Assembly (NCBI GenBank): GCA_034422075.1
Contig: DAOUJX010000060.1
Span: 5,515-69,514 of the forward strand
Length of the DNA: 64,000 nt
DNA from: Dehalococcoidia bacterium
GTDB taxonomy: Bacteria > Chloroflexota > Dehalococcoidia > Lucifugimonadales > Australimonadaceae
Reading direction: 5' to 3'
The notes beneath the pieces are model-generated. The model ran no database searches. It saw only the letters and a program-made list of their open reading frames with translations, and was not told the origin of the DNA. Every line of letters starts with the position of its first letter. The first letter of the stretch is position 1. Of this stretch, positions 7,261-34,904 are shown one piece after another. A program made the position numbers and the translations under genes.

Positions 7261-7299
7261 GGCAACAAACGATACACCGGTGACCAAGGAGGCGGGCGT

Positions 7300-7632: not shown

Positions 7633-7638
7633 GGTGCA

Positions 7639-8259: not shown

Positions 8260-8279
8260 CAGCCGCGCGGCGGGGCGGC

Positions 8280-9590: not shown

Positions 9591-9740
9591 CGAGCGCGGC
9601 TCCGAGCAGGTTAGTGAACAGGCCGCAGGCGGACCGGTGGGCGCCTCCCCAAACCACCGAATACGGCCATGGCACGGAACGCTACCATGCCCCAAGCGTC
9701 GCGGCGCAAGAGGGAAATTGCGGGATTTCGGGAGGGGATT

Positions 9741-9748
9741 CCCCCCCC
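9741..9748. repeat. C8 homopolymer inside the hairpin GGAGGGG-ATT-CCCCCCCCTCC
   Basis: Read directly. Lies in the intergenic region upstream of dnaA. Confidence 0.9.
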
Positions 9749-9786
9749 TCCGTACTCGGAGAGGAGCGCGGGGTCAGACAGGAGCC

Positions 9787-10314: not shown

Positions 10315-10327
10315 GGCGCGCCGCAGG

Positions 10328-11650: not shown

Positions 11651-11732
11651 CGCATCCTCCCCGTGATGCTCGTTGGTGCGTGGCGTCACAATAGTAGCGC
11701 CGCCGCGCATCGTCAAGCGCCGGAGGCGCGCC

Positions 11733-13016: not shown

Positions 13017-13107
13017 AGGGAAAGCCCATGCTACCACGCGGCAGTTAGGGCGGACTCCATGACCCACACGCCTGATGGGCTCTGCCGCGCTGTCGTAGGA
13101 TTGCGGC

Positions 13108-14040
13108 ATGACAGCTTCGCCCTCCCCTCGAATCGCCGTGCTGGGCGCGGTAAACATGGACCTCGTCGTCTCGCTGGCGCGGCTGCCGGAGAGCGGTGAG
13201 ACGCTGCTCGGCGATACGTTCGTCACCACGCCGGGCGGCAAGGGCGCCAACCAGGCCGTTGCCGCCGCCCGCATGGGCGCGCACGCGGCGTTCGCGGGAC
13301 GCGTCGGCAGCGACCCCTACGGGCCCGAGCTGCGAACCGCGCTTCGCACCGAAGGCATCGACACCGCCTTGCTCTTCACCGACCGTGGCGCTGCATCAGG
13401 CGTCGCTCTCATCACCGTGGCCACGGGCGGTGCAAACACCATCATCGCCGTGCCCGGTGCCAACGAGCGATGCGATGCGTCTGACGTCGAGCGCCTTCGG
13501 CCCGCCCTAGCCGAGTCGGACATGTTGTTGCTGCAACTCGAGCTGCCGACGGCGACGAGCCTCGCCGCTGCACGCGTCGCGCGCGAGATGGGGGTGCCGG
13601 TGCTGCTTGACCCCGCGCCCGTACGTCCGCTCCCGCCGGAGGCGTACACGCTCGCCGACGTGATGACGCCCAACGAGACGGAGGCGTCCAGCCTGCTCGG
13701 TACCGAGGTGCACGACTCCGACTCAGGCGTCGCGGCAGCAGCGGCGCTGGTCGAGCGCGGCGTGCCAACGGCCATCGTCACGCTCGGAGAGCAGGGCGCG
13801 GCGTATGCGACGCTAGGCGGCGATTGCGTCCACCTCCCAGCGCACGCAATCGAGGCGGTGGACAGCGTAGCATCGGGCGACGCGTTTGCGGGTGCGCTCG
13901 CCGTTGCCCTCGCGGAAGGCCGTCCGCTGGATGAGGCGATGCGCTGGGGCATGGCCGCCGGCGCCCTCTGCGCCACCGTCCCCGGCGCTCAGGCCGCGAT
14001 GCCGCGCAGGGATGCGGTGCTGCAACTCGTGGAAGGCTAG
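13108..14040 (+). CDS. rbsK: Ribokinase
   Basis: PfkB family motifs GGKGANQAVAAARMG and DSVASGDAFAGAL. Confidence 0.85.
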   Translation: MTASPSPRIAVLGAVNMDLVVSLARLPESGETLLGDTFVTTPGGKGANQAVAAARMGAHAAFAGRVGSDPYGPELRTALRTEGIDTALLFTDRGAASGVALITVATGGANTIIAVPGANERCDASDVERLRPALAESDMLLLQLELPTATSLAAARVAREMGVPVLLDPAPVRPLPPEAYTLADVMTPNETEASSLLGTEVHDSDSGVAAAAALVERGVPTAIVTLGEQGAAYATLGGDCVHLPAHAIEAVDSVASGDAFAGALAVALAEGRPLDEAMRWGMAAGALCATVPGAQAAMPRRDAVLQLVEG

Positions 14041-14098
14041 GAACCGTGCGTACCTTGTACCGCGCACAAAGGCTGCGGTAGGCTGCGCCGAGAGCACC

Positions 14099-14734
14099 GT
14101 GACGAACGCCGCGCCCCAAACCCTTGCGCCAGGCATCGTTGCGCTCGACGGCGAGCGTTTCGAGGTGGCACTGGACGCACACAAGGGTTTGCTCGATCGC
14201 CCTGCGGGACCCGGCGGGCTCACGCTCACCACGCACCGCGCAATTCGCCCCAGTTCGAGCGGGCAGCGCACCATCGTCATGGCGCTTTCCCTCCACGACG
14301 TCGGTAGCGCCGAACTGATCGAGCGCTCCGACCTCGCCAAAGGTCTGGCGCAGGCCGGGGCGCTTTTCGCCGCTGCCGCAGTGCTCGGCGGCCTTTCGTG
14401 GCTGGTGTTCGAGGCGGCGCTCTTTACCGTGCCCCTCGCGGGCATCCCCATCTTCATGGCAATCTTCATCCTCTCCGAGCACCTGCTGGGGGGGTCGAAG
14501 AGCGAGCTGCTGCTTTACACGGCGGGTGCGGTCCTGCGTCAACCATTGTTGAGCGGCACGGCGCGGCGCGACGCCCCCGCCATGCTCCACCGGCTGTTCT
14601 CCCTGAAGCACGGCATCGAGCCGGAAGAGCCGCCCGCGGCGACGCCTGTGGCCGTCCTGCGCGATACGCCGGTTGCGACGGCGCCCTTCGGCTGGACGCC
14701 CGTCCCACCGCTAGAGCGCACGCTGCCGGCCTAG
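14099..14734 (+). CDS. Hypothetical membrane protein
   Basis: Open frame with two clear hydrophobic helices (ALFAAAAVLGGLSWLVF, VPLAGIPIFMAIFIL). The start (GTG at 14099) is uncertain. Confidence 0.4.
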   Translation: MTNAAPQTLAPGIVALDGERFEVALDAHKGLLDRPAGPGGLTLTTHRAIRPSSSGQRTIVMALSLHDVGSAELIERSDLAKGLAQAGALFAAAAVLGGLSWLVFEAALFTVPLAGIPIFMAIFILSEHLLGGSKSELLLYTAGAVLRQPLLSGTARRDAPAMLHRLFSLKHGIEPEEPPAATPVAVLRDTPVATAPFGWTPVPPLERTLPA

Positions 14735-16213
14735 CATCCGTCCCCGCAGCACAGCTGAGGGCAGGAGCGCGGCGAGCAGCAGCCCCAGCGATATTCGGAA
14801 GAAGTCCTGGAAGAGCGCGATGCTAGCGTGGGAGATCTCCGACTGGTAGACGTCGAGCCGCGCCTCGTAGTCCGATGCACTGAGGTCGGTCGAGGGCAGC
14901 GGCAGGTGCAGGCCGGCCGTCGCCTCCTCGAATTCACCGACTCCCCACGCTGCCAGCGTCGCCATGCCGAACGTCATCCCCACCATGCGCGCCGCCATCA
15001 CCAGCGAGGCCGACGTCGCCTGGTACTCCGCCGTCGCCGCGTCCATCGCCGTCACGAAGACGGGCGCTATCACCAGCCCGAAGCCTAGGCCCGCCGTCGC
15101 CAGGTGCAGCGTCATGACGGGGTCGGCGATATCGGCCGTCCACCCGCTCATCAAGAAGACGCCGGCGGCGGCGACCATCAACCCCACAATCGTGACCGGC
15201 CGCTCGCCGATGCGGGAGGCGAGATAGCCGCCGGCGAGCGCCCCTATCGGCATCGCGCCCGTCATCCGCATCAGCTGCAGGCCGCCCTCAAGCGGAGTAC
15301 GGCCCAGCGCCGTGTTCGCCATCAGCGGCACGGTCACCATTGCCATGATGAGCGACGCGCCGACCAAGAACTTCACCAGCAGAGCGGCCAGCGCCTGTCG
15401 CGAGCGGAAGAACGACGGCGGCAGCATGGGCTGCATGGCGCGCCGCTCCACCAGCACGAGCGCACCTGCAATCAGCGCCCCCACGCCCAAGAGCGCGAAC
15501 GGCAGCGGTGAAGAAGCGTCGAACACCGACTCCTGCGCCGTCGCGTAGACCAGCAGCGTCAAACCGGCGACGAGCAGTGCGCCCCCAGCGTAGTCCATGC
15601 GCGCGCCGGACACCCGCGCAGACGAAAAGCCGCGCAGCGCCCAGATGAGTAGGACCGCCTGCGGCACGTCGAGCCAGAAGACCCAGCGCCAGCCGAGCAA
15701 CTCTGTTATCACGCCGCCGTAGAGTGGGCCGAGCACCATGCCCGCCTCCGCGCACGCGCCGATAACGCCGACGGCGATGGCCCGTCGCGTGCCCGGGAAC
15801 GCCTGGACGGCCATCGCCATGCCCACGGGGATGGTCGCGCCGCCGCCGAGCGCCTGCACGACGCGCGCCCCAATCAGCCACGACAGGTCCGGCGCGAGCG
15901 CAGCCGCCAGCGAGCCTGCGCCAAAGATGAGCAGCGATATGCGGAAGAGCCGCGCGTGACCGTGGATGTCCGCCAGCCGCGCCGTGAGCGGTATGGCCGC
16001 CGTAAAGCCCAGCAGATATGCCGTAATGATCCACGCGGCGCGGTCCAGCTCGGTCGGAGCAACTTTCAGGCCGACCATCACCTCCGGCAGTACCGTGACG
16101 ACGACCGTCTGGTCGAGCGCCGCCGTCAGCACCGCCCCGCTGACGATGGCCAGCGGCGTCCACGCGCGCAGCGTGTCGCGTAGGGTGGGTGTAGCGCTCG
16201 GGACGCCGCCCAT
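14711..16213 (-). CDS. MFS drug/lipid efflux transporter, 14-TMS DHA2-like (P55/Rv1410c-like context)
   Basis: 500 aa with about 14 hydrophobic segments and DHA2-type N-terminal motifs. Lies immediately downstream of an LprG-like lipoprotein gene. Confidence 0.85.
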   Translation of the reverse strand: MGGVPSATPTLRDTLRAWTPLAIVSGAVLTAALDQTVVVTVLPEVMVGLKVAPTELDRAAWIITAYLLGFTAAIPLTARLADIHGHARLFRISLLIFGAGSLAAALAPDLSWLIGARVVQALGGGATIPVGMAMAVQAFPGTRRAIAVGVIGACAEAGMVLGPLYGGVITELLGWRWVFWLDVPQAVLLIWALRGFSSARVSGARMDYAGGALLVAGLTLLVYATAQESVFDASSPLPFALLGVGALIAGALVLVERRAMQPMLPPSFFRSRQALAALLVKFLVGASLIMAMVTVPLMANTALGRTPLEGGLQLMRMTGAMPIGALAGGYLASRIGERPVTIVGLMVAAAGVFLMSGWTADIADPVMTLHLATAGLGFGLVIAPVFVTAMDAATAEYQATSASLVMAARMVGMTFGMATLAAWGVGEFEEATAGLHLPLPSTDLSASDYEARLDVYQSEISHASIALFQDFFRISLGLLLAALLPSAVLRGRMLGRQRAL

Positions 16214-16219
16214 CGGTTG

Positions 16220-16921
16220 CTACTCCAACGGTTGCGCTTGGTCGAACGCCGTAAAGGTCAGGATGCGCACGACCGGCGAGGGATCGTTGGTCAGCACGCT
16301 CCCCTCGATGCGCACGCGGCGCACGAGGCTATCGCTGCCCACCCAGACCTCGATGCGGGGCGTCAACGCCGCATCCGCGCCCCGGATGAGCGGCTGTATC
16401 GCCTCGCCCCCGACGCTACCTGCGATGCCGCGGGAGGCGACGCCGTCGAGCGCGTGTGTATCGGTATATGCCGGCTCCTGAAGCGCGAGCAGGATGCCGC
16501 CAAGCGTGTCTCCCAGGTCGTGCAGGTTGAAGGGCAACTCGCTCGCCGCTACGGGCAATAGTACGCCGGAGAGCGGGTCGGTCATCGCCGCGTCGTCGCC
16601 ATCGACGCGGATCTCCATTTCGATGAAGGCGTTGATCGCGCTGACCCTCGCCTCCACCTGCACCGAAGCACGGTCGGGGAGATGGACGCTGCCTTCCGCT
16701 TGCTGCAGCTCGATGCCTGCAAAGAGCGGCGTATGCCCCTCCTCGTGCGTTAGCGTGAACTCGACGGAGGTGAGCTCGCTCATACGCGCCGCCGCGTCGG
16801 CAAGACGCTCCGACGGCGGCTGCTCCGCTGATTCTGTGGCGCTATCCTCTCCGCACGCCGCCGCAACGGCCGCGAGCACCAGAAGCAGCGGGGCGGCGGT
16901 GAGCGCCTGGACCATTCGCAT
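16220..16921 (-). CDS. LppX/LprAFG-family lipoprotein (LprG-like)
   Basis: Signal peptide plus lipobox (LAAVAAAC-G). About 230 aa. Overall pattern resembles the lipid-binding LprG family. 6 nt upstream of the MFS gene. Confidence 0.65.
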   Translation of the reverse strand: MRMVQALTAAPLLLVLAAVAAACGEDSATESAEQPPSERLADAAARMSELTSVEFTLTHEEGHTPLFAGIELQQAEGSVHLPDRASVQVEARVSAINAFIEMEIRVDGDDAAMTDPLSGVLLPVAASELPFNLHDLGDTLGGILLALQEPAYTDTHALDGVASRGIAGSVGGEAIQPLIRGADAALTPRIEVWVGSDSLVRRVRIEGSVLTNDPSPVVRILTFTAFDQAQPLE

Positions 16922-17243
16922 CGCGCGGCAACCCTACCAACGCTCCCCCCGCACCACAAGGCGGCTAGGCGGCGTTGGACGTGCGGGTCCTATGCCAGGA
17001 CCGTGCGGTAGGCGCGAAGCAGACCCTGCATCCGGCACGCACCTCGGCGGCGCCCCACTCGCAGTCGGTTGCGCACAGCGACGCTACAGGGAGTGCGGAG
17101 GCGAAGTGCGCCGCCGCGCCCCTATGGGCAGAGGGCCAGTGGGTCGCTCAGCAGGCGCTCTACGTGCGCCTGCTCGGGCGCTAGCGGCCTTCGCAGAGAA
17201 AAGCTCTCTTGATCCAAGAATCCCGCTGCTGTTGCAAGACGCC

Positions 17244-17256
17244 GGGGGGGGGGGGG
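17244..17256. repeat. G13 homopolymer tract
   Basis: 13 consecutive G counted directly, followed by AATTGCCCTC. Intergenic, 63 nt beyond the stop of the 74-aa gene. Confidence 0.95.
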
Positions 17257-17318
17257 AATTGCCCTCAGGTGCGCTGTCTATGGGCGGCGGAGTCGGCCGT
17301 CGAGTTCAGGCTTATGGG

Positions 17319-17543
17319 CTAGTACGTGAAGAAGTAGACATACCATGTGGCGACCTCAGGGCCGTCACCACCCTCACCCGATTCGCACCCATGTCTCGTG
17401 GCCGCTCGATTCTCGGCCCCTTGCGCCGCCGTCTTGGTGGAGTGCAGGCTTATGACCTGCCAGTCCTGCAACGTTGGGTGCTGGCTCTCCCAGTACCTCC
17501 TCCGCGCTTCCATGTCCGTAGTGATTCCAACTCGACATGCCAT
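17319..17543 (-). CDS. Small conserved hypothetical protein (74 aa)
   Basis: Compact ORF MACRVGITTD...RRRYWESQHP...TKTAAQGAENR...WYVYFFTY. Resembles a widespread small protein family of unknown function; the family is not named with certainty. Confidence 0.5.
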   Translation of the reverse strand: MACRVGITTDMEARRRYWESQHPTLQDWQVISLHSTKTAAQGAENRAATRHGCESGEGGDGPEVATWYVYFFTY

Positions 17544-17688
17544 TTGGCGTACCCCCTTACGGGTTGCGGGCCGCCCGCATTGCGGGCCCGCCTTGGATGG
17601 GCTTAGTGCAGGCTACTACCTTGGCAGTCGTTCCAACAAGGAATGGCCATTAGCGGGTGGGTAAAGGGGCTTGCACAAACCCATTCGG

Positions 17689-17716
17689 GTTCCGGCTTTC
17701 GCGGGAATGACGAAGG
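17689..17716. repeat. REP-like hairpin family copy (GTTCCGGC-TTTC-GCGGGAAT + GACGAAG)
   Basis: Imperfect stem-loop with the family tail GGAATGACGAAG. Intergenic. Confidence 0.5.
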
Positions 17717-17820
17717 AACACGCCCGGGTGACCAAGAGGCAGGCCATGCGGGGTGCTGCACGATTGCGTTCACGGGCGCGGCGAGGATGCGGCGGCAGCG
17801 CTCTGGGGCGCCGGAGAGCG

Positions 17821-18246
17821 CTAGTCGAGGCTGAGCCCCTCGGCGCCCTTGGCAAGGCGGTCGGCGTGCGTGCGTTCCGCGCGCGCCAGCGTCTCGAACC
17901 ACACCGCCAGCTCGTCGAAGCCCTCGTCGCGCGCTGTCTTGGCAAAGCCGGGGTACAACTCCGTGTACTCGTACGTCTCGCCCTCGATGGCCGACTTGAG
18001 GTTGGCCTCGGTGGTGCCGATCGGCCCGCCCGTGACCGGATCACCGGTCTCCCTCAGGAAGTCAAGGTGCCCAAAGGCGTGGTCCGTATCGGCCTCAGAG
18101 AGGTCGCGGAAGAGGGCGCCGATCTCCGGGTGGCCCTCGATGTCCGCGCGGCGCGCGAAGTAGAGGTATCGGCGGTTGGCCTCCGCCTCGCGCGCAAAGG
18201 CGCTCTTCAGGTTCTCGAAGCTCTGCGTCCCTTCTAGGCTTGCCAT
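17821..18246 (-). CDS. Rubrerythrin-family ferritin-like protein (no rubredoxin domain)
   Basis: Di-iron ExxH motifs ([30 protein letters not shown]). 141 aa. Confidence 0.85.
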
Positions 18247-18415
18247 CTCTCTGCCCTCTTTGGTCGCGATTGCGGAACATCCCCTACGCTGCCGCGACCG
18301 GCGCCGCGGCGCTCCGCGTCGGCGATGGGGTCATTGCGGGGAATCGTACCGCGTGAAGATAGGCGCAGCCGCGAATGGTGTCAATCGCGCGTGTATCGGC
18401 GCGCTTTGGGGCGCG

Positions 18416-19309
18416 CTAGAGTGCGGCGCGCAGCGCTTCCGCCAGCTCCGTTGCCGTCACGTAGCCCTCGAAACGGGCGGCAATACGGGCGTCGCGGCCT
18501 AGGAGGTACACCCACGACTCGTTCGTCCAGTGGGGGATGCCGGTGAAGCCCCAGCGCTCCACCAGCGGCGAGTAGACGGCGCGCGTAAGGTCGCCCTGGA
18601 TGTCGGCGGGATTGTCGTAAACCTCGACGTGGATGAAGTTGGCCTGCTCTCCGAACTCCTCGCGCACCTCCGACACGGTGTCGACCTGCGGGCCGCACGT
18701 CGGACTCGTGCAAAGGGCGGGCGTCGCGAAGACGATGAGCGACGGCTTGTCCGATATCACCGCATCGCCGATGGTCGTTGTGTAGAGTTGCGGGTCCGGC
18801 GTCGGGTCGCTGGTGAGCTCGGCGATGTCCTCGACGTCCTCCAACGTGCGGTTGTTGGCGAAGGGCGGGAGCGCGCCGACGTCGACGACGCTACTCTCTT
18901 CCGCGACCTCGACAACAGCGCGCGCAGGCGCCACGGCATCGTCCGCCGCAACGATATCGAGTTGCCAGCGCCCCGGCTGATCGAAGGCTATGTCGCCCGA
19001 GTAGGCCCCGCGCACGCCGAAGGGCCACCCGTGGAACGTCGTCTCGGCGGTGACCGTCTTGCCGTCGCCGTCGAGGTGGGTCGCCGTGACCGTCGCGCTG
19101 GGGGCGCGCACGATGTCCTGGCCGGTCACCAGCAAGAACGAAATGCGCTGCGATCCCTCGCGCAGGACGGTGGTGGCGAAGAGCGCCTCGGCGTCGGCGA
19201 TTTGGGGCGGCGGCGTTGACGTTGGGGTGGGCGGCGGCGCGGCGCACGCTCCCAGTAGCGCGGCAAGCGCGAGGAGCAGGGCAGCGGCGGTGGCGCAGCG
19301 GCCGCTCAT
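18416..19309 (-). CDS. Thioredoxin-fold lipoprotein (single CxxxxC: CTSPTC)
   Basis: Signal peptide plus lipobox (LLGAC), PT linker, and a C-terminal Trx-like region with FATPALCTSPTCGP. The ATG at 19309 abuts the stop of the upstream gene. Confidence 0.65.
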   Translation of the reverse strand: MSGRCATAAALLLALAALLGACAAPPPTPTSTPPPQIADAEALFATTVLREGSQRISFLLVTGQDIVRAPSATVTATHLDGDGKTVTAETTFHGWPFGVRGAYSGDIAFDQPGRWQLDIVAADDAVAPARAVVEVAEESSVVDVGALPPFANNRTLEDVEDIAELTSDPTPDPQLYTTTIGDAVISDKPSLIVFATPALCTSPTCGPQVDTVSEVREEFGEQANFIHVEVYDNPADIQGDLTRAVYSPLVERWGFTGIPHWTNESWVYLLGRDARIAARFEGYVTATELAEALRAAL

Positions 19310-26738: not shown

Positions 26739-26748
26739 CACCCTAACT
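26739..26748. repeat. Target-site duplication, left copy (CACCCTAACT)
   Basis: Identical 10-mer immediately outside both terminal inverted repeats. Confidence 0.85.
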
Positions 26749-26765
26749 GGCTTTGCACAGAAACC
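26749..26765. repeat. Terminal inverted repeat, left (GGCTTTGCACAGAAACC)
   Basis: Exact reverse complement of 34750-34766. Confidence 0.9.
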
Positions 26766-26805
26766 CCCGCCCGCGCGCGAGTTTTTGTGCATGCCGCTTG
26801 GGATT

Positions 26806-28107
26806 TTATGCAGATGCGGTTTGCCGAGGGATGAGCAGGTCCATCATGCCCAGCTCGTAGGATGCGTGAATCAGCACGCTGATGTTGTGGCAGAGGAACT
26901 TGAGCAGGACTTCGTTGACCTGGGCGACGGGCGTCCGTGACCGGACGGATGCCCCGTACTTGTTCTTGACCATGCTGAAGGTGCTCTCGACGTTGGAGCG
27001 CTTGTGGTAGTGCGCACTGAACTCTTCGCTGTTGAACTTGACGTAGTGATAGTACCGCTCCCACTGGCTGTCCCGTGGCAGGTCTGGTGACACAGGGCGG
27101 GACTTGGCTTTCAGCGGGATGTACGCCCTCGCGCCGACTGCCTCGACCGCACGCACGTTCGCCCTGCTCAGGTAGGCTTTGTCGGCGGAGACCTCTTCGA
27201 TGTTGAAATGCCGCGCCGTCGCCTCCACGAAGGGCGCCAGGTAGCGGGTATCGTTGGTCGGGGTTGCTGTCGCCTCTGCCTGGGTGATGATGTTCGTCTT
27301 CACACCGCAGATCGCGTGAGCCTTGACCCATAGGATGTTGCGGATTGGTCTCCCCCACTTGTGGTCAAAGTAGCGGCCGTAGACCGACGTGCCGAACCCC
27401 GTGGAGTCAATGGCGAAATCGTGCTCTACCGCAGCCAGGGGGATGGCGCTCTGCTCGATGAGCTGCTTCAGTACGGGAGTCAGCGCTGGGTCTTCCATGT
27501 ACTTCCACAGCGACGCCACCGAGGGGGCCTTGGCAATGAGGCCGTCCGTGTTGGCGCTCCGAATGCCCGTCATGGCCCGCCTGGTCGAGAATCCCCCGTA
27601 GACCTTGAGGCTTGCCGCAAATACCACATCGGACAACGGCAGGCGGGGCCGCCCCGTTCCGCTGGCTGGAGGCTGCTCGATGGTGCTGCAAAGGTCGCGG
27701 AGCAGGGTCGCAAAGTGCTCTTGCTCGTGCTCCTGCGCTGCGTTGTAGAGCGCCCAGGGCTGGCCATAGGTGGTGCCGGTTGGGAGCGTTTCCAGGTCGG
27801 CTCCCAGCCCCAACTGTCCGTCCCGTCGTTTGACGACCATTTGGACAGCGTAGATGTGCTTGCAGAGGCCCGGCCGTTCCTCAAAGTCTGGGCAACTGCA
27901 ATAGGGCTCGGCGCGGTCGACGAGGACATAGTAGGTGCCTTTGCCGGACTGGCTGGGCACCTTGTAGCCCCTTCCGGACTCCCTGATGGGCGCGAGCGCT
28001 GCTATGGCCATTCCGCGCTGCTTGCGGCCCGCGTCTCCGTCGTCGGGTGCTCCGGGGCCCAAAGCAGTGATGAGGTTGGGGTCAAAGTCGAGTCGCTGAT
28101 TCTTCAT
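26806..28107 (-). CDS. DDE transposase (IS4/IS5 superfamily) with N-terminal SWIM-type zinc finger
   Basis: SWIM signature CSCPDF...CKH and a perfect Y(2)R(3)E(6)K signature (YHKRSNVESTFSMVK). The ATG at 28107 has AGGTGA upstream. An alternative GTG lies at 28131. Confidence 0.85.
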   Translation of the reverse strand: MKNQRLDFDPNLITALGPGAPDDGDAGRKQRGMAIAALAPIRESGRGYKVPSQSGKGTYYVLVDRAEPYCSCPDFEERPGLCKHIYAVQMVVKRRDGQLGLGADLETLPTGTTYGQPWALYNAAQEHEQEHFATLLRDLCSTIEQPPASGTGRPRLPLSDVVFAASLKVYGGFSTRRAMTGIRSANTDGLIAKAPSVASLWKYMEDPALTPVLKQLIEQSAIPLAAVEHDFAIDSTGFGTSVYGRYFDHKWGRPIRNILWVKAHAICGVKTNIITQAEATATPTNDTRYLAPFVEATARHFNIEEVSADKAYLSRANVRAVEAVGARAYIPLKAKSRPVSPDLPRDSQWERYYHYVKFNSEEFSAHYHKRSNVESTFSMVKNKYGASVRSRTPVAQVNEVLLKFLCHNISVLIHASYELGMMDLLIPRQTASA

Positions 28108-28142
28108 CTGTTCACCTATGGCGAGCACCACAATCTAGGCAC

Positions 28143-28224
28143 ACAGTACTATACATTGTATGGTATTGTCAATTTCTAGCCGGAATCTGTTGCGTTGACA
28201 GTCCTATACACTGTCTCTTACTGT
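28143..28224. promoter_or_regulatory. Back-to-back promoters (both TTGACA-N18-TACTGT) with a 19-bp palindromic candidate operator
   Basis: Minus strand: TTGACA (28167-28172), TACTGT (28143-28148). Plus strand: TTGACA (28195-28200), TACTGT (28219-28224). The palindrome TACTATACATTGTATGGTA (28147-28165) lies in the minus-promoter spacer. Confidence 0.4.
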
Positions 28225-28230
28225 CCTGTC

Positions 28231-28470
28231 ATGAACGACGTGCAGCGGAAGATTGCGGCTCTACAAGAGCGGGGTTGGACCTTGGCCGCCATCGCCGATG
28301 AGCTTGGCGTGACGCCTAATGCCGTCGAGAAGTGGAAGGCCGGCGTCCGCAACGCTACCAACCTCAAGTCCATTCTGGAGCACTTGGAGCGGCTGCAGCA
28401 CCGGCAACGTATCCCGAAGCAGCGCCGATACCAACTGGGGCGTTCACACAGAGCCGTGAGGAGTCGTTGA
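28231..28470 (+). CDS. Small helix-turn-helix DNA-binding protein (80 aa)
   Basis: HTH segment WTLAAIADELGVTPNAVEKW. The ATG lies 6 nt after the putative -10, so the transcript may be leaderless. Confidence 0.65.
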   Translation: MNDVQRKIAALQERGWTLAAIADELGVTPNAVEKWKAGVRNATNLKSILEHLERLQHRQRIPKQRRYQLGRSHRAVRSR

Positions 28471-28538
28471 TGGCTAAAGGCAAGAGCTTCAATTGGGATC
28501 GGCCCAAGCGCTGGGAGCGCAAGGTAGTGGAGGCCTAG
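28470..28538 (+). CDS. Possible 22-aa micro-ORF (MAKGKSFNWDRPKRWERKVVEA)
   Basis: The ATG overlaps the HTH stop (TGATG) and has GAGGAG upstream. Very short, so speculative. Confidence 0.25.
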   Translation: MAKGKSFNWDRPKRWERKVVEA

Positions 28539-28542
28539 CGTT

Positions 28543-30109
28543 ATGGGCGCTAAAGAACGCCGTGCTTCTCGCGCGCGCGTGACGAGTCCGCGCCTGCGGC
28601 CCCCCCCCGAGTCCATACCTAGGGGGACATGCCCTCGTCTGCGCGGACAACCTCGACATACTCAAGGGACTGCCCCCCGAGTGCGTTGACCTCATCTACT
28701 TAGACCCCCCCTTTCAGAGCAATCAGTTCTATGTTGCCGCCTTCGGCGACAAGGGGATGGTGGCGCGGCAGTTGCGCGACATATGGCGCTGGACTGCAGG
28801 GACGCAGACAGCGTTCGACAGCCTGCCACACGGCCAGTTGCTTGACACTCTACAGGGTATTCGCTTGCAAGTAGGGGAGAAGTCGCCAATGGCCGCGTAT
28901 GCGGTGTTCATGGGGCGGCGGCTTGCTGAGATGAGAAGGGTGCTCAAGCCGACGGGGAGCATCTATCTACATTGCGACTGGCACGCGAACGCCTACCTAC
29001 GGCTGCTCATGGATGCAGTGTTTGGGGCAGGCAACTTCAGGAATGAGATCGCGTGGTGCTATGACACGGCTGGGCGGACGCAACGCTACTGGAACCGCAA
29101 GCACGATTCCATTTTCTTCTACTCAAAGATGCAAGGGTGGACGTTCAACCCATTACGCATCCCTCGGCGCAACCTAACGGAAGGTTGGGAATCGTGGTAT
29201 TCGCTTACTGATGAGGATGGGCGCCGGTATCAAATAGACGGCAAGGGGTACAAGTACTACGCAGATGAAGGGCGCTTGGCAAATGACTGGTGGGATGATC
29301 TTCCCGCCCTGCACGCCCATAGGGATGAAGAACGAATAGGCTACCCCACACAGAAGCCGGTTGCCCTGCTGGAGCGCATCATCAAGGCCAGCAGCAACGC
29401 AGGTGACCTAGTGCTCGACCCATTTTGTGGGTGCGGTTCTGCGGCGGATGCAGCATACGCCAATGGCAGGCGCTACCTCGGTATCGACATCAGCGGGATC
29501 GCGGTACGTGTTATGCAGCAGCGAATGGAGTCGCGCGGCGATTCCCCATCGGTCTATGGGCTGACGTGGGATGAGATGGAATGGGAGGAGTTCGAGTATC
29601 GAGCACTCGCGCAGCGCGACGACGTGGAGGACGGTATACCAGGCTGGGCATGGGCAGAGGACAGGGTAGCAGCGCTGCTAAACGCGGTGCCGAACGAACG
29701 CAAGGTGGGCGACGGCGGCGTGGACGCGCGCTACTACGGCGCGATGGACATCGAACAACAGCAGGGAATCGTGATTCCCATACAGGTGAAGATGCACCGC
29801 ACGGCCTCGGTTGGGCGCCCCGACATGGATCGGCTGTTGGGCACGCAGACTGCGATGCAGAACCGAGGCGTGCACGCGCCGATGTCCCTCATGGTGAGTC
29901 TCTACCCGCCGCCGGAGTCCCTGCGTGTGTTTGCGATGGAGCAGGGGCGGGTGGCGCTGACGACACACGAAGGTGGGCATGAGGAATACCCGCGTATGCA
30001 GGTATTGAGCGTGGAGGAGATGTTGAGGCACGGAGAACGTCCGAAGTTGCCACCAGTGGACCCTCGCTCACTCGTCGGCGATACACAAACCCGAACCTCA
30101 TTGGTCTAG
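28543..30109 (+). CDS. Beta-class N6A/N4C DNA methyltransferase fused to a C-terminal Mrr-type (PD-(D/E)xK) nuclease domain; frame broken at a C9 tract
   Basis: Motif IV DLIYLDPPF comes before motif I VLDPFCGCGSA. C-terminal GDGGVDARYYG...VIPIQVK matches the Mrr catalytic pattern. The ATG at 28543 (GGAGG upstream) is +1 out of frame with the body. One fewer C at 28600-28608 restores a single ORF. Confidence 0.8.
28600..28608. repeat. C9 homopolymer at the frameshift point of the methyltransferase-nuclease gene
   Basis: Nine consecutive C counted directly. Confidence 0.95.
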
Positions 30110-30289
30110 ATGCGCCGACGGCGTAAGAGCATCCTCACCTTGGCCACAGACAATTGAAGTCTTCCACCGGCTCGCATCGACGTTTTGTCCCTCTCGACAT
30201 CGGACAAAAGGGTGGACGCTCGACATCTGATTGACGCCCCACAAACCGTGATGAGACCATCCATGGCGAGGATACGTTTCCATCATTGT

Positions 30290-30318
30290 TTGTTATTGTT
30301 AGTCAGTTAGTGTAAAAT
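30290..30318 (+). promoter_or_regulatory. Sigma70-type promoter TTGTTA-N17-TAAAAT
   Basis: AT-rich island 43 nt upstream of the AAA+ ATPase ATG, with hexamers at canonical spacing. Confidence 0.5.
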
Positions 30319-30360
30319 CCATCACATGACCGATCGGGCGCACGAGAGAGGCAGAGCCAT

Positions 30361-31632
30361 ATGAGCAAGAGGCGCAGGGCGAGCAAGAGCAGCCGGGAAA
30401 AGTTGATTAACCGGGAAATCCAGCTAGGTGAGGTGTTTACGCCGGCGGCGCCCATTGACCAACTGAGCCTTTTCGCTGGGCGTATTTCACAGAGGCGCTC
30501 GGTCGTCGACGCGATCTTTCAGCGCGGCCGCCACGCAATATTGTTTGGGGAGCGTGGTGTTGGCAAGACTTCGCTCGCCAGCGTCTTGCGCGAGTACCTT
30601 GAGAGCCTCGGACAGATCATCGTTGCTCCTCGTGTGAACTGCGACGACGGCGATGACTACTCAACGATCTGGTTCAAGGCTTTCGGTGACCTGCAGGTCA
30701 TTGAGAGCCGTCGAGGTATGGGCTTTACACCGGAGGTGCAGGCGATCGTTCGCTCAGCGAGCGACTCAATCGGAAACCTAGAATCTGTCACCCCTCACTA
30801 CGTACGGCAGTTACTAGAACAGCTCGGCGAGCAAACGATTCTAATTGTGATTGTCGACGAATTCGACCGTGTGGCCAGCCGGGTAGGGACGCAATTCGCT
30901 GACACCATCAAGATGCTCTCCGATCAGTCAGTGCCCGTGACACTGGTGCTCGTCGGGGTCGGCGAGACAGTCAGCTCGCTCATCAGCGAGCACGCTTCGA
31001 TTGAGCGCGCACTCGCTCAGGTGCGCCTACCCCGTATGTCTACATCCGAACTGCAAGAAATCGTCGACGGCGGGCTCTCAGAAGTCGGGATGTCCGCCGA
31101 GACAGTCGCACGGGACCGGATCGCTGCACTGTCGCAGGGGCTCCCGCACTACACTCACCTCATAGCGCTTTATGCGGCTCGTGATGCGAACGATGCCGGA
31201 TTGGACGTGGTAGGGGTCGAGAACGTCGCCGCAGGAATCCGCGAGGCGGTAGAGAACGCTCAGGAAACGATTACAACGACGCACCATCGGGCCGTGATGA
31301 GCACTCGGTCTGACTCACTCTACCGCCACGTTGCGCTCGCCTGCGCGCTTACTGAGACCGATGAGCGGGGCTACTTCACAGCAGGCGCGGTGCGGGAGCC
31401 GATGGCGGCAATTATGGGCAAGCCGTACGCGATTCCCGCGTTCGCAAAACACATGAACGAATTCTGCGGTGACCTGCGCGGCCCTATCCTTGAGAAGTTC
31501 GGAACGCAGCGGAACTACCGGTTCAGATTCCATAACCCCCTGCACCCACCCTACATAATCATGAGCGGAATCGCCCAGGGGCTGATCGCTGAGGACACGG
31601 CAGTTAGCATCCAGAACGGCGCGAGTGGCTAG
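30361..31632 (+). CDS. AAA+ ATPase, ORC/Cdc6-like (archaeal-ATPase type) with C-terminal winged-helix-like region
   Basis: Walker A GERGVGKTS, Walker B ILIVIVDEFDRV, a sensor-like region, and a basic N-terminus (KRRRASKSSREK). Confidence 0.8.
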   Translation: MSKRRRASKSSREKLINREIQLGEVFTPAAPIDQLSLFAGRISQRRSVVDAIFQRGRHAILFGERGVGKTSLASVLREYLESLGQIIVAPRVNCDDGDDYSTIWFKAFGDLQVIESRRGMGFTPEVQAIVRSASDSIGNLESVTPHYVRQLLEQLGEQTILIVIVDEFDRVASRVGTQFADTIKMLSDQSVPVTLVLVGVGETVSSLISEHASIERALAQVRLPRMSTSELQEIVDGGLSEVGMSAETVARDRIAALSQGLPHYTHLIALYAARDANDAGLDVVGVENVAAGIREAVENAQETITTTHHRAVMSTRSDSLYRHVALACALTETDERGYFTAGAVREPMAAIMGKPYAIPAFAKHMNEFCGDLRGPILEKFGTQRNYRFRFHNPLHPPYIIMSGIAQGLIAEDTAVSIQNGASG

Positions 31633-31689
31633 GGAAATCCCGCGGTTATCGCGCGCGCGAGTCTTGAGGCACCTAGGGGGAGTCCCAAT

Positions 31690-31749
31690 TTTCAGAACCG
31701 CACGCTCTTCCACGGTGACAACCTAGCCATTCTGCGTGGGATGAACTCC
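31690..31749 (+). pseudogene. Remnant of a second DNA methyltransferase N-terminus (FQNRTLFHGDNLAILRGMNS)
   Basis: Paralogous at the protein level to ALVCADNLDILKGLP of the intact gene. No start codon and no DPPF follow. Runs into the 3' end of the Fic gene. Confidence 0.45.
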
Positions 31750-31794
31750 GCGTGGGAAGACCCGGGCACCGCATCGGGCGATTATTGGCAGGCC

Positions 31795-32400
31795 CTAGGG
31801 CTCACCAATTTGTTGGCGAACCAGTTCCCCGATGAGCGACATGAGTGGGATGAGGTCGCCGCGATCCGCCCACTCTAATGCTTGCACGTAACGCGAATGG
31901 TGCGCACCTTCGAGTAACTCAGGCAAGAGTGGGCGGCCTGGTAGCAATCCCCCGACCTTAAGGCAGAGAGTAAGGTAGCACACAGCCCGTGCAGTGCGCC
32001 CATTGCCGTTCACGAAGGGGTGGACAGAGTTGATGCGCCACAGCGCGTAAGCCGCCAACCGCAACTCCGACCAATCCGCCCAAGCATCATTCACTTGGCG
32101 GACGAATTGGCTCATCAGGTCAGGTACGCATGTGTGGTCGGGCGGGCGATAGCGTACCACCCCCTGATCATCCATCACCGTAACGTTCGTTGTGCGGTAT
32201 TGGCCTGCCGTCGAGTGGAGCAAGACGACAGCCTGATAGTTTATTGCCTTGATACGCCAGTCGCTCAACTGGGGCGACTGCGTTTGCAGAGCAACCTTGA
32301 TGAGGGTCTGAAGGAAGTGGTAGTAGCGCTCAGAGTTTTCAGCTTCGACGGCTCGATAGAGTGGGTTCTCTTCGCCGCCCTTGAGCTGGGCGAGGTTCAA
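31795..32400 (-). CDS. Fic-domain protein (putative AMPylase/toxin)
   Basis: Fic motif HPFVNGNGRTAR (31987-32022). 201 aa. Last gene of a four-gene operon. Confidence 0.9.
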   Translation of the reverse strand: MNLAQLKGGEENPLYRAVEAENSERYYHFLQTLIKVALQTQSPQLSDWRIKAINYQAVVLLHSTAGQYRTTNVTVMDDQGVVRYRPPDHTCVPDLMSQFVRQVNDAWADWSELRLAAYALWRINSVHPFVNGNGRTARAVCYLTLCLKVGGLLPGRPLLPELLEGAHHSRYVQALEWADRGDLIPLMSLIGELVRQQIGEP

Positions 32401-32405
32401 GACAC

Positions 32406-32618
32406 TTACTCTGTGATCGGCCCGTAGCGGTCATCGAGCATCTGCATGACCTCCTCGCGAGACATCGTGCTCCTTCTGCCACTGAAGCCCATGACTGCGG
32501 AGACGAGTTGCTCCCGCTTCTCTTTCGGAGTCATCAGAGGGTAGCGTTTCGTGGCCTCTGCTAGCAGATCACTGGTTTCTTTGAACCACGCTTCGTCCTT
32601 CCCGAATTTTGCTGCCAT
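32406..32618 (-). CDS. 70-aa helical protein, candidate Fic partner/antitoxin
   Basis: Stop lies 5 nt before the Fic start. Charged and helical. No canonical (S/T)xxxE(G/N) motif; the closest is TMSREE. Confidence 0.45.
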   Translation of the reverse strand: MAAKFGKDEAWFKETSDLLAEATKRYPLMTPKEKREQLVSAVMGFSGRRSTMSREEVMQMLDDRYGPITE

Positions 32619-32650
32619 CGCTACTCTCCTTTGCAGTTACGGTAAGGGCA

Positions 32651-32920
32651 TCAGCGGCTGACGGCGAGGCGCCTGAGATGTACTTGCCCTTCATCGTCAT
32701 CTATATCGAAGTAGAGGCGGAGGGGCAGTTGCGCCCCCCTGATGTGTATCACATGAAACCGAGTCCCAGGGACCATCGGGGCCAAGTGGGGAGTAAGAGC
32801 AAGGTCGCGGTAGTACCCTGCGAGAATCTCATCCCAACGCATGAAGGAGCCGACAATGCTCTCAACTTGGGCTTGGAACTGTGCCGACTCGACCATTGTG
32901 TAGGAGGGCCTACCGTCCAA
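32651..32920 (-). CDS. Small RelE/ParE-like toxin candidate (81-89 aa)
   Basis: C-terminal pattern LRLYFDIDDDEGQVHLRRL resembles the RelE/ParE fold. Overlaps the stop of the upstream DUF4065 gene. Start is the TTG at 32920 or the ATG at 32896. Confidence 0.4.
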   Translation of the reverse strand: MDGRPSYTMVESAQFQAQVESIVGSFMRWDEILAGYYRDLALTPHLAPMVPGTRFHVIHIRGAQLPLRLYFDIDDDEGQVHLRRLAVSR

Positions 32921-33473
32921 GACCGAGTTCTTCAGTGAGCGCTAGGCTATGCTCAATGTCTTCCTCGTCAATATACTCCAATGAAAGCCATGCGGACGAA
33001 TAGGGGATGTCCTCCATTGGCTTTGCGGCCAGCCAGCCCCATTCTAGATGAGACAGCTCCGACGCCTCTCTTGCCGTCATGTGCCAAAGCTCTCCAATGA
33101 CCTCATCGAGGATTTCCACTTCCTCTGGACGTAGGATGCCTTCCGTCGGTTCGTCCAAGGCGACGATGCGGTGTTGGACGCCAGTAAAATAAGGGCGAGG
33201 CTCAATGCGGATGGCCTCCTTGCGTATCAGCCTTCGCCTTGCCTCAAGCATTTGCTTCGGCGCAGGGCCTTGATCTAACCGATAGTACGTCGCTCCGGTG
33301 ATAGGCTCACCCAGCCTCCGGTATGCCTCAAAGTCGGCGAAGTAGAGGATCTTATTGAGCTTGACGGCTCCGAAGCGCTCATCCCCCTCGCTGTGCTTGG
33401 CGATATAGATGATGGCCTCATCGAATTTGCGTTCGTCGAATGTTTCTATGTAGGGGCGGCCCACTTCCGCCAT
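32910..33473 (-). CDS. Panacea/DUF4065 (SocA/GepA-like) antitoxin-domain protein
   Basis: Core pattern AVKLNKILYFADFEAYRRLGEPITGATYYRLDQGPAP. 187 aa. SD CAGGAGG upstream. Confidence 0.75.
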   Translation of the reverse strand: MAEVGRPYIETFDERKFDEAIIYIAKHSEGDERFGAVKLNKILYFADFEAYRRLGEPITGATYYRLDQGPAPKQMLEARRRLIRKEAIRIEPRPYFTGVQHRIVALDEPTEGILRPEEVEILDEVIGELWHMTAREASELSHLEWGWLAAKPMEDIPYSSAWLSLEYIDEEDIEHSLALTEELGLGR

Positions 33474-33532
33474 GACGCCTCCTGACTAGTTTGAGCCTCG
33501 ACTAATCCTAGCCTCCTTGAGGCTGACAGGCC

Positions 33533-33561
33533 CATATAATACAAATATACACAATTGTCAA
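33533..33561 (-). promoter_or_regulatory. Sigma70-type promoter TTGACA-N17-TATATG for the DUF4065...Fic operon
   Basis: Read on the minus strand in an AT-rich island 60-88 nt upstream of the ATG at 33473. Confidence 0.55.
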
Positions 33562-33644
33562 CACCACCCTCAACCTCTTAGTGTCACGAGATCTTATCCT
33601 GCGGCGGGCTGACTGCCCTCCAGCCCCATCGCTAGACTGGATGG

Positions 33645-33661
33645 GGTTCTTGTGCAAAGCC
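33645..33661. repeat. Internal copy of the right terminal repeat (GGTTCTTGTGCAAAGCC, 15/17 identical)
   Basis: Same orientation as the IR-R at 34750-34766. Confidence 0.6.
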
Positions 33662-34109
33662 AAGGCACCCCAGGAGTCTCGGTTGGTTGAGGAATGCCTC
33701 GCGGTGCTCCTCGTAGATCTGCTCTTTGTCCATGCCCTCGTATACAGAGCCTGAATCCATGTGGCGCGACCTTCTCCCTAGTCCTCGCCCTCGTCCTTGT
33801 CGTTGTCTTGTGCTTGCCGTTCCCTGTACAGCATGTCTAGGGGCAGCGACCGCCAAGGGCAGTCGGGCTCGACACAGAGCGTGTCCGCCCTAGCGGTCTC
33901 GATCCCGCACGTGCATATGCCCATGGGGCCTCCCAGGGAAGATCCCGGCCGTCATGGCCAAGAACCGCCGACCACTTGCGGCCTGTAGTAAAATACGCTC
34001 ACGCGGCATACAGCAAAACAGGGGCATTAGGCGTGCCCCTGGATGCTCAGCGTAGGCTGGAATGCACTAACGTCGTAAAGCGCATTCTACTTCCTGCTCA
34101 AAGGATGTC

Positions 34110-34146
34110 AAGCCCGCGCGGAGACAACTCGCGCGGGCTTTTGCTT
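34110..34146 (+). terminator. Intrinsic-terminator-like hairpin (AAGCCCGCGCG-9nt-CGCGCGGGCTT + TTGCTT)
   Basis: 11-bp GC-rich stem followed by a T-rich tail on the plus strand only. No annotated plus-strand CDS lies upstream. Confidence 0.5.
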
Positions 34147-34349
34147 GGCCCTCGCGGAGAAAGGAAGTGCGCCTATGCCTACCCGAAAAATAGGCATCCG
34201 CCGGACAGTGCGCGTGGGAACACGCGTAACGGTCAAACGGAAGGTAACCGTTAGAACCACCCGGCGACGATAGCCCAAGGACAGGCACCCTGATCTTTGG
34301 TCAGGGTGCCCATCCTACACACCTCACACCACTAGGTAGGAGGAAAGGC

Positions 34350-34688
34350 GTGGCTAGGAATGTCGTCAGGTCAGGGCTGCACCACAGAAAAAGCAGGAGG
34401 AGCCTGGTGTCCCAAGATGAGGTGCTGATATGTGTCGAATGTAGAGTCGAAGCCCAAGTTGAAGGTGTCGACGGTCAGATTGACCGAATAACCTGTCCAT
34501 CGTGTGCCGTGTCGGTCGAAGGCGATAGCGGTCTCGAGATGGCACTCAAACAATTGAGCCATGACACTATCCGTGAATTCCAGGAGCGCCTCAAGCGCAC
34601 ATTTGGAAAAGGCGGCCCGGTCAGCTATAGCCCCGGCCGCCTCAATAACCCTAGAAGCCCATTCATCGTCGGTATACCTGACTCGTAG
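34350..34688 (+). CDS. Small zinc-ribbon protein (CxxC...CxxC), hypothetical
   Basis: CVEC and CPSC pairs. GTG start with AGGAGG 9 nt upstream. Confidence 0.5.
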   Translation: MARNVVRSGLHHRKSRRSLVSQDEVLICVECRVEAQVEGVDGQIDRITCPSCAVSVEGDSGLEMALKQLSHDTIREFQERLKRTFGKGGPVSYSPGRLNNPRSPFIVGIPDS

Positions 34689-34711
34689 GGGCTAGTCTTC
34701 TCTGGGAACGG

Positions 34712-34743
34712 GGTTGATGTGCAAAGAGCCGAGTTTTTGTGCA
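34712..34743. repeat. Subterminal repeat boxes (GGTTGATGTGCAAAGAGCC + CGAGTTTTTGTGCA)
   Basis: The first box resembles the IR. The 14-mer CGAGTTTTTGTGCA also occurs at 26778-26791 in the same orientation. Confidence 0.55.
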
Positions 34744-34749
34744 GGAGGC

Positions 34750-34766
34750 GGTTTCTGTGCAAAGCC
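34750..34766. repeat. Terminal inverted repeat, right (GGTTTCTGTGCAAAGCC)
   Basis: Exact reverse complement of 26749-26765. Confidence 0.9.
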
Positions 34767-34776
34767 CACCCTAACT
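34767..34776. repeat. Target-site duplication, right copy (CACCCTAACT)
   Basis: Identical to 26739-26748. Confidence 0.85.
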
Positions 34777-34904
34777 ACAACATGTTGTGGATTCGTTTCG
34801 TACAGACCCCAATTTGTGCTAACGAGGCTTCCATTGCCACACTTGACGTTTTTTTGCGCAGAGTGTTAGCGTGGCTCAATACACCTTGATGCGGAGGGGG
34901 CGCC

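Follow-up and report, generated by a model that had tools for sequence, protein, structure and literature searches.

The 64,000-nt stretch of Dehalococcoidia DNA analysed here (hereafter the window; contig DAOUJX010000060.1, positions 5,515–69,514) carries an element of 8,018 bp in the spacer between hrcA and guaB3. Its exact inverted ends, its target-site duplication (TSD), an empty site in a close relative and a set of complete related elements make it very probable that we are dealing with a unit (cargo) transposon from a large family whose hallmark is a DDE transposase with a SWIM domain and a Tn5-like fold.

Ends, target duplication and empty site

The boundaries of the element comprise the following features:

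26739–26748 (no strand): left TSD copy, CACCCTAACT, which the empty site of L002 (see below) contains once
26749–26792 (+): near (transposase-proximal) end, with the terminal repeat GGCTTTGCACAGAAACC at 26749–26765 and an inverted subterminal repeat TGCACAAAAAC at 26781–26792
33645–33661 (−): internal solo end-like repeat GGCTTTGCACAAGAACC, with two mismatches, oriented as a far end and without subterminal repeats
34706–34766 (−): far (transposase-distal) end, with three direct TGCACA-type repeats, the outermost being the terminal repeat at 34750–34766
34767–34776 (no strand): right TSD copy, CACCCTAACT

The terminal repeat reads GGCTTTGCACAGAAACC on the plus strand at 26749–26765, and its exact reverse complement occupies 34750–34766. 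The element is thus bounded by perfect 17-bp terminal inverted repeats (TIRs) and measures 8,018 bp (34766 − 26749 + 1). A repeat finder stretches the TIR to 26 nt at 88% and reports short TGCACA(A/G)AAAC-type repeats close to both ends, i.e. three direct copies in the far end (34706–34766) and the terminal copy plus one inverted copy in the near end (26749–26792). With up to three mismatches allowed, the 17-mer has three matches in the window compared to 0.11 expected from shuffled sequence; the third is the internal copy at 33645–33661, which the initial annotation had missed. The 10-mer CACCCTAACT abuts both ends on the outside, and these are its only two exact copies in the 64-kb window.

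A search with HrcA led to a complete Dehalococcoidia chromosome, a metagenome-assembled genome (OZ220670.1, hereafter L002), whose HrcA is 98% identical to that of the window. Positions 1–9913 of L002 align with window positions 44679–34767, and positions 9904–18975 with 26748–17666, both at 94–95% identity, and the two alignments overlap by exactly 10 bp, i.e. by the length of the duplication. At the junction the two flanks abut with a single CACCCTAACT (...GCGCCGACACCCTAACTACAACATGTTGTGG... / ...gcgccgaCACCCTAACTacaacatgttgtgg...); the sequence obtained by removing the element and one 10-mer copy is GCCGACACCCTAACTACAACATG. Compared to this close relative, the insertion therefore consists of the complete 8,018 bp and one 10-mer copy. 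The GC content is 0.55–0.63 inside the element (0.65 in one interval of the profile) versus 0.67–0.70 outside. An initial annotation made from the letters alone had proposed the 17-bp TIRs and the 10-bp TSD, predicted the empty site and described an interior richer in AT than the flanks; repeats and duplication lie where it placed them, the predicted site exists in L002 with a single 10-mer and the windowed GC profile is discontinuous. Its view that the whole 8,018-bp unit, with defence- or addiction-type passengers, was inserted recently in the hrcA/guaB3 spacer is likewise supported.

The hrcA core promoter is probably intact despite the insertion because a promoter-like site (26715–26686) sits between the insertion and hrcA. 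On the guaB3 side, a perfect 12-bp palindrome (ACAACATGTTGT, 34777–34788) adjoins the TSD. The contigs returned by HrcA and partner-gene look-ups (L001 and L176) are 100% identical to the window and come from the same SRR13587046 assembly, so they are not independent; exact-sequence look-ups of the transposase (441-aa, 433-aa and P0001 forms) returned no contig.

The transposase, its partner gene and their relatives

Two divergent genes and the region between them form the left part of the element:

26806–28131 (−): transposase of 441 aa, or 433 aa if translation begins with the ATG at 28107, with an N-terminal SWIM and a DDE_Tnp_1 domain (Pfam, alignment and AlphaFold2 model)
28108–28230 (no strand): divergent control region between the transposase and partner genes, AT-rich, with a palindrome ATACA-T-TGTAT and TTGACA boxes
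28195–28470 (+): small XRE-like helix-turn-helix (HTH) protein (79 aa if begun at the ATG at 28231), a conserved companion of the transposase

Pfam recognizes DDE_Tnp_1 (PF01609, E = 1e-18) and SWIM (PF04434, E = 3e-6) in the transposase. The CxC...CxH motif of the SWIM finger corresponds to C78/C80/C90/H92, the catalytic acids are D242, D317 and E382, and the signature Y375-(2)-R378-(3)-E382-(6)-K389 (YREK) is complete; SWIM residues, acids and YREK are invariant in an alignment of 30 sequences (29 homologues aligned), which confirms the YREK and zinc-finger calls made initially. The AlphaFold2 model (pLDDT 80.5) finds its best PDB match in the Tn5 transposase (4dm0 and 1muh; TM-score 0.41 over ∼400 columns). 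A sister element at the same genomic site in a closely related strain (L162; described below) encodes a transposase that is 92.6% identical at the protein level, and the 66 synonymous versus 32 non-synonymous codon differences between the two genes indicate purifying selection. With a full-length open reading frame (ORF) and all catalytic and YREK residues in place, the transposase looks functional.

No NCBIfam insertion sequence (IS) model is passed at its cut-off by this protein. The nearest is the IS5 equivalog NF033579 (113 bits versus a cut-off of 140, E = 1.7e-32, residues 153–417), other IS5 models give 18–33 bits and the IS4 model NF033592 gives 15 bits versus a cut-off of 115. A tblastn search of 72,556 plasmids yielded only distant matches (∼26% identity) annotated as IS5 family, and the literature on transposases combining SWIM and IS5 features and on transporter IS with methylases gave no description of the family. 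A profile search at E ≤ 1e-30 collected 1,594 clusters (50% identity). The family is thus apparently undescribed in the annotation models, plasmids and literature searched, and may be named in ISfinder. The profiles place the transposase in no described IS family; judged by its YREK motif and ∼10-bp duplications, it would behave as an IS4-type enzyme. The ORF list, Pfam and NCBIfam reveal no integrase or recombinase gene in the element. Nor does the element resemble a composite transposon: there is one transposase gene, and the far end is a 60-bp cluster of repeats rather than an IS.

The HTH gene, whose product has the motif MNDVQ.RIA.LQ.KGWTLAA.ADEL.VT.NAVEKWKAG, lies directly upstream of the transposase gene in divergent orientation. 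This arrangement occurs in the window, in the sister element and at at least 24 of 82 related loci (loci with enough upstream sequence were counted, using a deliberately narrow hidden Markov model). Homologues of the HTH protein number 286, and the 120 listed are short XRE-like proteins of 68–124 aa. The gene is retained beside the transposase in 2.6-kb elements that lack a methylase (L084 and L104), and we therefore count it as part of the core rather than as the controller of one restriction–modification (RM) system. The control region is 96% identical to that of the sister element, compared to 91.7% for the whole core, and the HTH protein may well be a regulator acting on this shared region. 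The transposase had initially been taken as the only transposition gene; it is the sole transposase, but the HTH gene is conserved as a second core gene.

Relatives were collected from 80 metagenome loci, 24 viral-contig loci and the contigs of several individual homologues. At 34 of the 80 metagenome loci, a ...CAAAGCC terminus preceded by two subterminal repeats lies 60–135 nt past the transposase match. This recurrent CAAAGCC/GGCTTTG end identifies the 17-mer of the window as the signature terminus of the transposase family and disposes of the concern that it could be a generic dispersed repeat. Taking the terminal 24 nt and seeking an inverted partner upstream, we delimited fifteen distinct complete relatives of 2.6–6.1 kb, with GGCTTTG at both ends and TSDs of 9–10 bp. 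They include L091 (5,208 bp), L094 (3,700 bp), L099 (5,038 bp), L104 (2,592 bp), L105 (4,398 bp), L115 (3,801 bp), L152 (6,117 bp), L155 (4,536 bp), L174 (4,773 bp), L175 (5,712 bp), L181 (3,925 bp) and L186 (3,704 bp), together with copies of the P0052 relative (L166, L167 and L170, 5,326 bp each; in L164 a nested IS brings the length to 6,759 bp, and this copy is no separate size class). No bare IS of ∼1.5 kb was found among the delimited relatives.

The 5,326-bp P0052 relative is present in at least ten copies in one genome, at different sites and with different 9-bp TSDs. The cargo is the same in all of them: an N6 methylase of 804 aa plus two small genes. Since these copies keep one cargo at different sites, cargo demonstrably transposes together with the transposase in this family. 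The P0007 relative has two copies, and the window element is single-copy. Among ten cargo proteins taken from delimited elements, most are N6_Mtase, Eco57I or MmeI-type single-chain RM enzymes. A blind census covered the two largest ORFs in the 4-kb region upstream of the transposase at 50 loci; of its 80 ORFs, it contains 18 with DNA-methylase domains (11 N6_Mtase, 4 N6_N4, 2 C5 and 1 D12) and further Eco57I, Methylase_S and HSDR_N matches; the true cargo fraction is higher because many of the remaining ORFs are host genes beyond short elements. DNA methyltransferase and RM genes are strongly enriched beside the transposase, and these sequence comparisons point to a family of cargo transposons rather than a plain IS with acquired neighbours.

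Several further observations concern individual relatives. In the genome with the P0052 copies (ERZ25072854, L163–L172), some copies have flanks that belong to others: the sequence to the left of L163 pairs with that to the right of L169 (GGGTAACCC), and L168 and L170 have a common left flank, which indicates recombination between copies or assembly chimeras. In two P0052 copies another IS (DDE_5) is inserted into the methylase gene. A viral-class contig (IMGVR_UViG_3300037506_000184, L201 721–800) contains a terminus of the far-end type with three direct TGCACA repeats; the first 22 nt of this terminus equal the near end of the window element, and there is no cargo similarity in 5.5 kb. Another contig (L092 1–2608) consists of one complete 2.6-kb family member with end repeats at both tips; it may have been assembled from an element that is multi-copy or excised. 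In a distant branch of the family (41–47% identity; IMG/VR loci L185, L187, L189 and L190), the CAAAGCC end is absent and a conserved gene with a motif like DLT..EQANVR.AL..LR.RCG.W starts at or overlaps the transposase stop.

The antisense strand of the transposase gene is also unusual in many relatives. In a survey of the transposase genes of L082–L161 (e.g. L091 4040–5209 and L099 8734–9912; 27361–28179 in the window), the codon-aligned antisense frame is stop-free or nearly so in 36 of 76 relatives, with at most two TTA/CTA/TCA codons even at 44–50% GC; another 24 relatives, mostly of similar GC, have 8–23 such codons. In L091 there is one among the 52 leucine and serine codons of the transposase versus 44 of 152 in the neighbouring cargo gene. 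The open frame continues in-frame into the HTH gene at eight loci, and in the window it is broken by three stops. When an antisense protein was tested for by synonymous divergence (pS), the values approached saturation in either group, those of the 'open' group being lower by only ∼0.05. It thus seems that this frame stays open without conservation of a protein sequence.

Cargo genes and the C9 run

Between the HTH gene and the internal end-like repeat, the element carries:

28543–30109 (+; listed ORF from 28757): N6/N4 DNA methyltransferase of the beta class, with an Mrr-like domain at its C-terminus
30361–31632 (+): P-loop ATPase, 423 aa, with AAA_22, AAA_16 and nSTAND1 matches
31795–32618 (−): Fic-domain protein (201 aa, 31795–32400) and an upstream 70-aa ORF
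32651–33473 (−): SocA/Panacea-domain protein (187 aa, 32910–33473), followed by an overlapping 89-aa ORF

The methyltransferase is recognized by Pfam (PF01555, E = 2.7e-37) and PADLOC (MTase_II, E = 1.8e-52). Its C-terminal 190 residues match Mrr_cat at E = 0.0016 (19 bits versus a cut-off of 21) over GDGGVD...IQVK, and a related ORF at L082 has the identical methylase plus Mrr_cat architecture with a stronger match (E = 1.6e-6); a PDB sequence search with this C-terminal domain returned only spurious repeat-protein matches. Of the methyltransferase–nuclease named in the initial annotation, the first half is thus well founded and the second depends on a sub-threshold Mrr_cat match.

The reading frame of this gene is not continuous. 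The catalytic DPPF motif is encoded at ∼28700, upstream of the listed ORF (28757) and in its frame, and from the stop at 28580 to DPPF this frame lacks an ATG, GTG or TTG codon. A leader (MGAKERRASRARVTSPRLRPPP) begins with the ATG at 28543 and continues into a tract of nine C residues (C9, 28600–28608). Relative to this ATG, the catalytic body from DPPF onward is in the +1 frame (i.e. the leader is −1 relative to the body), and leader and body would be fused if the tract were C8 or if slippage by +1 took place on CCC CCC CCC. The sister element has the same leader (MGAKAPRASRARVASPTPAAPP), the C9 tract and the +1 relation, though the surrounding DNA has diverged (L162 9430–9570, minus strand); the leader consensus of the two is MGAK..RASRARV..PPP. 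Logan contigs show C9 too, but they derive from the window's own run (SRR13587046). Because the sister element keeps leader, tract and frame relation despite divergence, the arrangement seems better explained by a conserved switch or recoding site than by decay or misassembly, and it suggests phase variation, transcriptional slippage or +1 ribosomal frameshifting. The element had been called intact, which applies to its ends, TSD and transposase and is uncertain for the methylase–nuclease, whose frame is split at C9.

The remaining passengers agree with the initial calls of an AAA+ ATPase, toxin–antitoxin-like genes and a Fic protein. The Fic protein matches PF02661 (E = 2.2e-14) and SoFic (E = 2e-17), and its motif HPFVNGNGRTAR fits HxFx(D/E/N)GNGRxxR; together with the 70-aa ORF it is arranged like a toxin–antitoxin pair. 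The SocA/Panacea protein (PF13274, E = 1.6e-18) and the overlapping 89-aa ORF form a putative antitoxin–toxin pair, in which the 89-aa ORF, without a family match in Pfam and a further domain search, would be the toxin. Cargo of this kind is plausibly both defensive and addictive, i.e. it would defend the host and make loss of the element costly.

Mobility, probable site reuse and proposed growth of the element

The observations above can be combined into the following model. The transposase would bind the GGCTTTGCACA termini and the subterminal repeats (one extra copy at the near end and two at the far end), pair both ends, move all DNA between them and integrate it across a 9–10-bp staggered cut; the YREK motif and the Tn5-like fold suggest cut-and-paste transposition via end hairpins. 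The transposase and the divergent XRE-like HTH gene constitute the conserved core, and cargo occupies the space between the HTH gene and the far end, with a first slot that usually holds a DNA methyltransferase or a single-chain RM enzyme and here appears to hold a methylase with an Mrr-like domain. The 8,018-bp piece would have arrived in this lineage recently as one, and the solo internal end suggests earlier growth by a new outer far end. A fuller reading is attractive but tentative, and we would not yet stake much on it: that an undescribed family normally serves as a vehicle for RM or defence cargo, with a family-specific HTH protein, grows at its outer end, reuses one target in either orientation, so that the site turns into an exchangeable locus for defence cassettes, and controls its methylase–nuclease through the C9 run.

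Some points weigh against this picture. The element is single-copy and known from one sample only; its nuclease assignment falls below threshold, and the methylase–nuclease is not a simple open gene, given the C9 run and the +1 frame. We infer the cut-and-paste mechanism and the role of the HTH protein, the defensive function of the cargo is presumptive, and describing the family as new relies on negative searches of annotation models, plasmids and literature.

The second member of the window transposase's cluster (P0121) is encoded on L162, whose flanks are 99.3–99.6% identical to those of the window. L162 carries a 6,141-bp element (5209–11369, with CACCCTAACT on both sides) at exactly the same position, in the opposite orientation, so that its transposase adjoins guaB3. 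Its cargo differs, consisting of a methylase–HNH fusion with a clear HNH domain and four ORFs without an assigned function. The two transposase–HTH cores are 91.7% identical, the methylase regions are colinear at 74–79% identity, the far ends are 79% identical and the terminal 22 nt are identical. The flanks differ by 0.36% and 0.69%; these differences are evenly spread, and no divergent recombination tract was found beside the insertion. Since the cores differ by 8.3%, the elements are far older than the split of their hosts.

Two separate insertions into this 10-bp target are the explanation that we favour, and they would imply a strong target preference. Among other subfamilies, GGAGAG or GGGAAGGGG occurs in 14 of 27 outer flanks (the 24 nt beyond the near end were examined), and the duplications there are centred in CTCCC-N-GGGAG-type palindromes (L091, L105, L155, L096, L100 and L112, among others); some subfamilies thus appear to target a specific palindromic sequence resembling repetitive extragenic palindromes. 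Complementarity between target site and element ends, looked for with a guide mechanism in mind, was limited to chance-level 7–9-mers. Against independent insertion, the 62%-identical relatives and the ten P0052 copies have no common target. The two elements could alternatively be alleles of one ancient insertion, inverted and re-stocked in place, an explanation that deserves attention although we consider it improbable. It would account for the identical position and TSD in both strains and for the colinear core and methylase region, the identical terminal 22 nt would let an end-to-end flip pass without a trace, and the lack of a common target among close relatives at 62% identity fits it as well. 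However, a shared insertion should match its flanks in divergence, whereas the cores are 8.3% apart (66 synonymous differences) between flanks that differ by 0.36% and 0.69%; repeats of 17–26 bp are poor substrates for homologous inversion; and the target preference seen elsewhere (14 of 27 flanks) makes repeated insertion at one site plausible.

It is quite unlikely that the element is a dead relic, fixed in its lineage and immobile. A single copy, an interrupted methylase frame and occurrence in one sample are what a relic would show. However, the ends and TSD are perfect, the full-length transposase retains its catalytic residues and has non-synonymous below synonymous divergence (dN < dS) relative to the sister, occupation of the site varies between strains of at least 99.3% identity, a relative at 94–95% identity has it empty, and the frame interruption is shared with the sister element, so that it looks like a feature.

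The internal end-like repeat raises the question of which pair of ends moves the element. No duplication flanks 33661, and the three-repeat architecture of the outer far end recurs in the sister element and other relatives. In two copies of one relative, L174 and L175, far-end copies are nested and a 10-bp duplication lies outside the outermost copy in each; L175 differs from L174 by an extra 939-bp tandem far-end module (an end repeat with 155-aa and 86-aa ORFs). An internal solo end repeat is present in each copy (L175 5615–7492 and L174 6554–7183). The inner repeat of the window element is solo while the outer end is complete with a duplication, and L174 and L175 are alike; this anatomy suggests that elements lengthen by taking on a new outer far end. 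A miniature inverted-repeat transposable element beyond the old far end was considered as the origin of the outer 1.1-kb module and rejected; there is no outward-facing repeat after 33661.

With its correct orientation and only two mismatches, the copy at 33645–33661 could also bound the true mobile unit, so that 26749–33661 (6.9 kb) or the transposase–HTH core would move and the outer 1.1 kb would be neighbouring DNA with a stray repeat. We regard this as very unlikely: the TSD and the empty-site breakpoints fall exactly at the outer ends, the outer end has the three-repeat architecture while the inner copy is solo and without a duplication at 33661, and L175 has demonstrably been moved by the outermost of several nested ends, with a 10-bp TSD. 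A genomic island mobilized by a site-specific recombinase or phage, with att-like repeats, could explain the reuse of an intergenic site in two strains and the presence of some family members on viral-class contigs, but it can practically be dismissed, as there is no integrase or recombinase gene and inverted boundary repeats with a short direct duplication are the signature of a DDE transposon, recurring across the family.

Among known systems, IS4 elements are marked by the full Y(2)R(3)E(6)K signature and a TSD of ∼10 bp, and in IS231 variants of up to 5.4 kb passenger genes separate the transposase gene from one end (De Palmenaer et al. 2008, PMC2266710). The window element has YREK, a ∼10-bp TSD, passenger DNA and the structural match to Tn5 in common with IS4, IS231 and Tn5, but its termini are GGCTTTG rather than CA or CT, it scores 15 versus 115 bits with the IS4 model, it adds the N-terminal SWIM domain and the coupled HTH gene, and passengers are the rule in its family rather than the exception. 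IS5 provides the best profile match to the catalytic region, but at 113 bits this is below the cut-off of 140 and leaves the SWIM region uncovered. Typical IS5 members are ∼0.8–1.6 kb long and carry no cargo, whereas the complete elements described here are 2.6–8 kb with cargo.

Tn7-like elements carry defence cargo. Passengers of the toxin–antitoxin type are known from Tn3-family elements (PMC7157771). As in both of these, one pair of ends encloses transposition genes and defence or addiction passengers; the differences are another transposase superfamily, a single transposase, no resolvase and no TnsABC-type machinery. RM units, including Type IIG, have been recognized by empty-site comparison within imperfect inverted repeats and a short duplication, mostly without an identified transposase, and the authors could not name the mover (Furuta, Abe & Kobayashi 2010, PMC2853133). 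Here, in contrast, a dedicated and conserved transposase–HTH core travels with RM genes, and relatives are multi-copy. Eukaryotic Mutator-like (MULE) transposases carry SWIM zinc fingers of the form CxCxnCxH (PMC6446971). A SWIM domain is fused to a DDE transposase in both cases, but the MULE catalytic domain is of the Mutator/IS256 type whereas that of the window is PF01609 (IS4/IS5 type), with no Mutator-type Pfam match. The SWIM domain of MULEs lies C-terminally, and that of the window transposase N-terminally.

The spread of defence systems from genome to genome is still poorly understood. RM genes have long been seen in 'transposon-like' repeats without a known driver (PMC2853133), and the present locus ties such cargo to a widespread transposase family. 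It also offers a natural series at one site, i.e. empty, occupied, and occupied by another relative in the opposite orientation in a near-identical strain, which makes target choice, cargo turnover and the roles of the HTH protein and the C9 tract testable. The family lies largely outside current IS annotation models, and in environmental genomes the annotation probably treats its members and the cargo they carry as genes with no connection to one another.

The outer 1.1-kb module contains two minor features:

34350–34688 (+): 112-aa ORF with CxxC...CxxC, giving only a weak zinc-ribbon hint and no family match
34019–34111 (−): predicted near-consensus promoter TTGACA-16-TAGAAT (34111–34084), followed by a terminator-like hairpin (34041–34019)

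Near-consensus sigma-70 promoters had initially been reported for the interior; we find one such site and no enrichment, i.e. five sigma-70-like sites versus 3.1 ± 1.7 in shuffles. An Rfam search of 25.0–36.5 kb gave no match. The promoter at 34111–34084 agrees with the consensus at 11 of 12 positions, a perfect 11-bp hairpin lies ahead of it and the terminator-like hairpin follows ∼40 nt beyond, so arranged that a candidate small RNA of ∼65 nt is predicted at 34019–34077.

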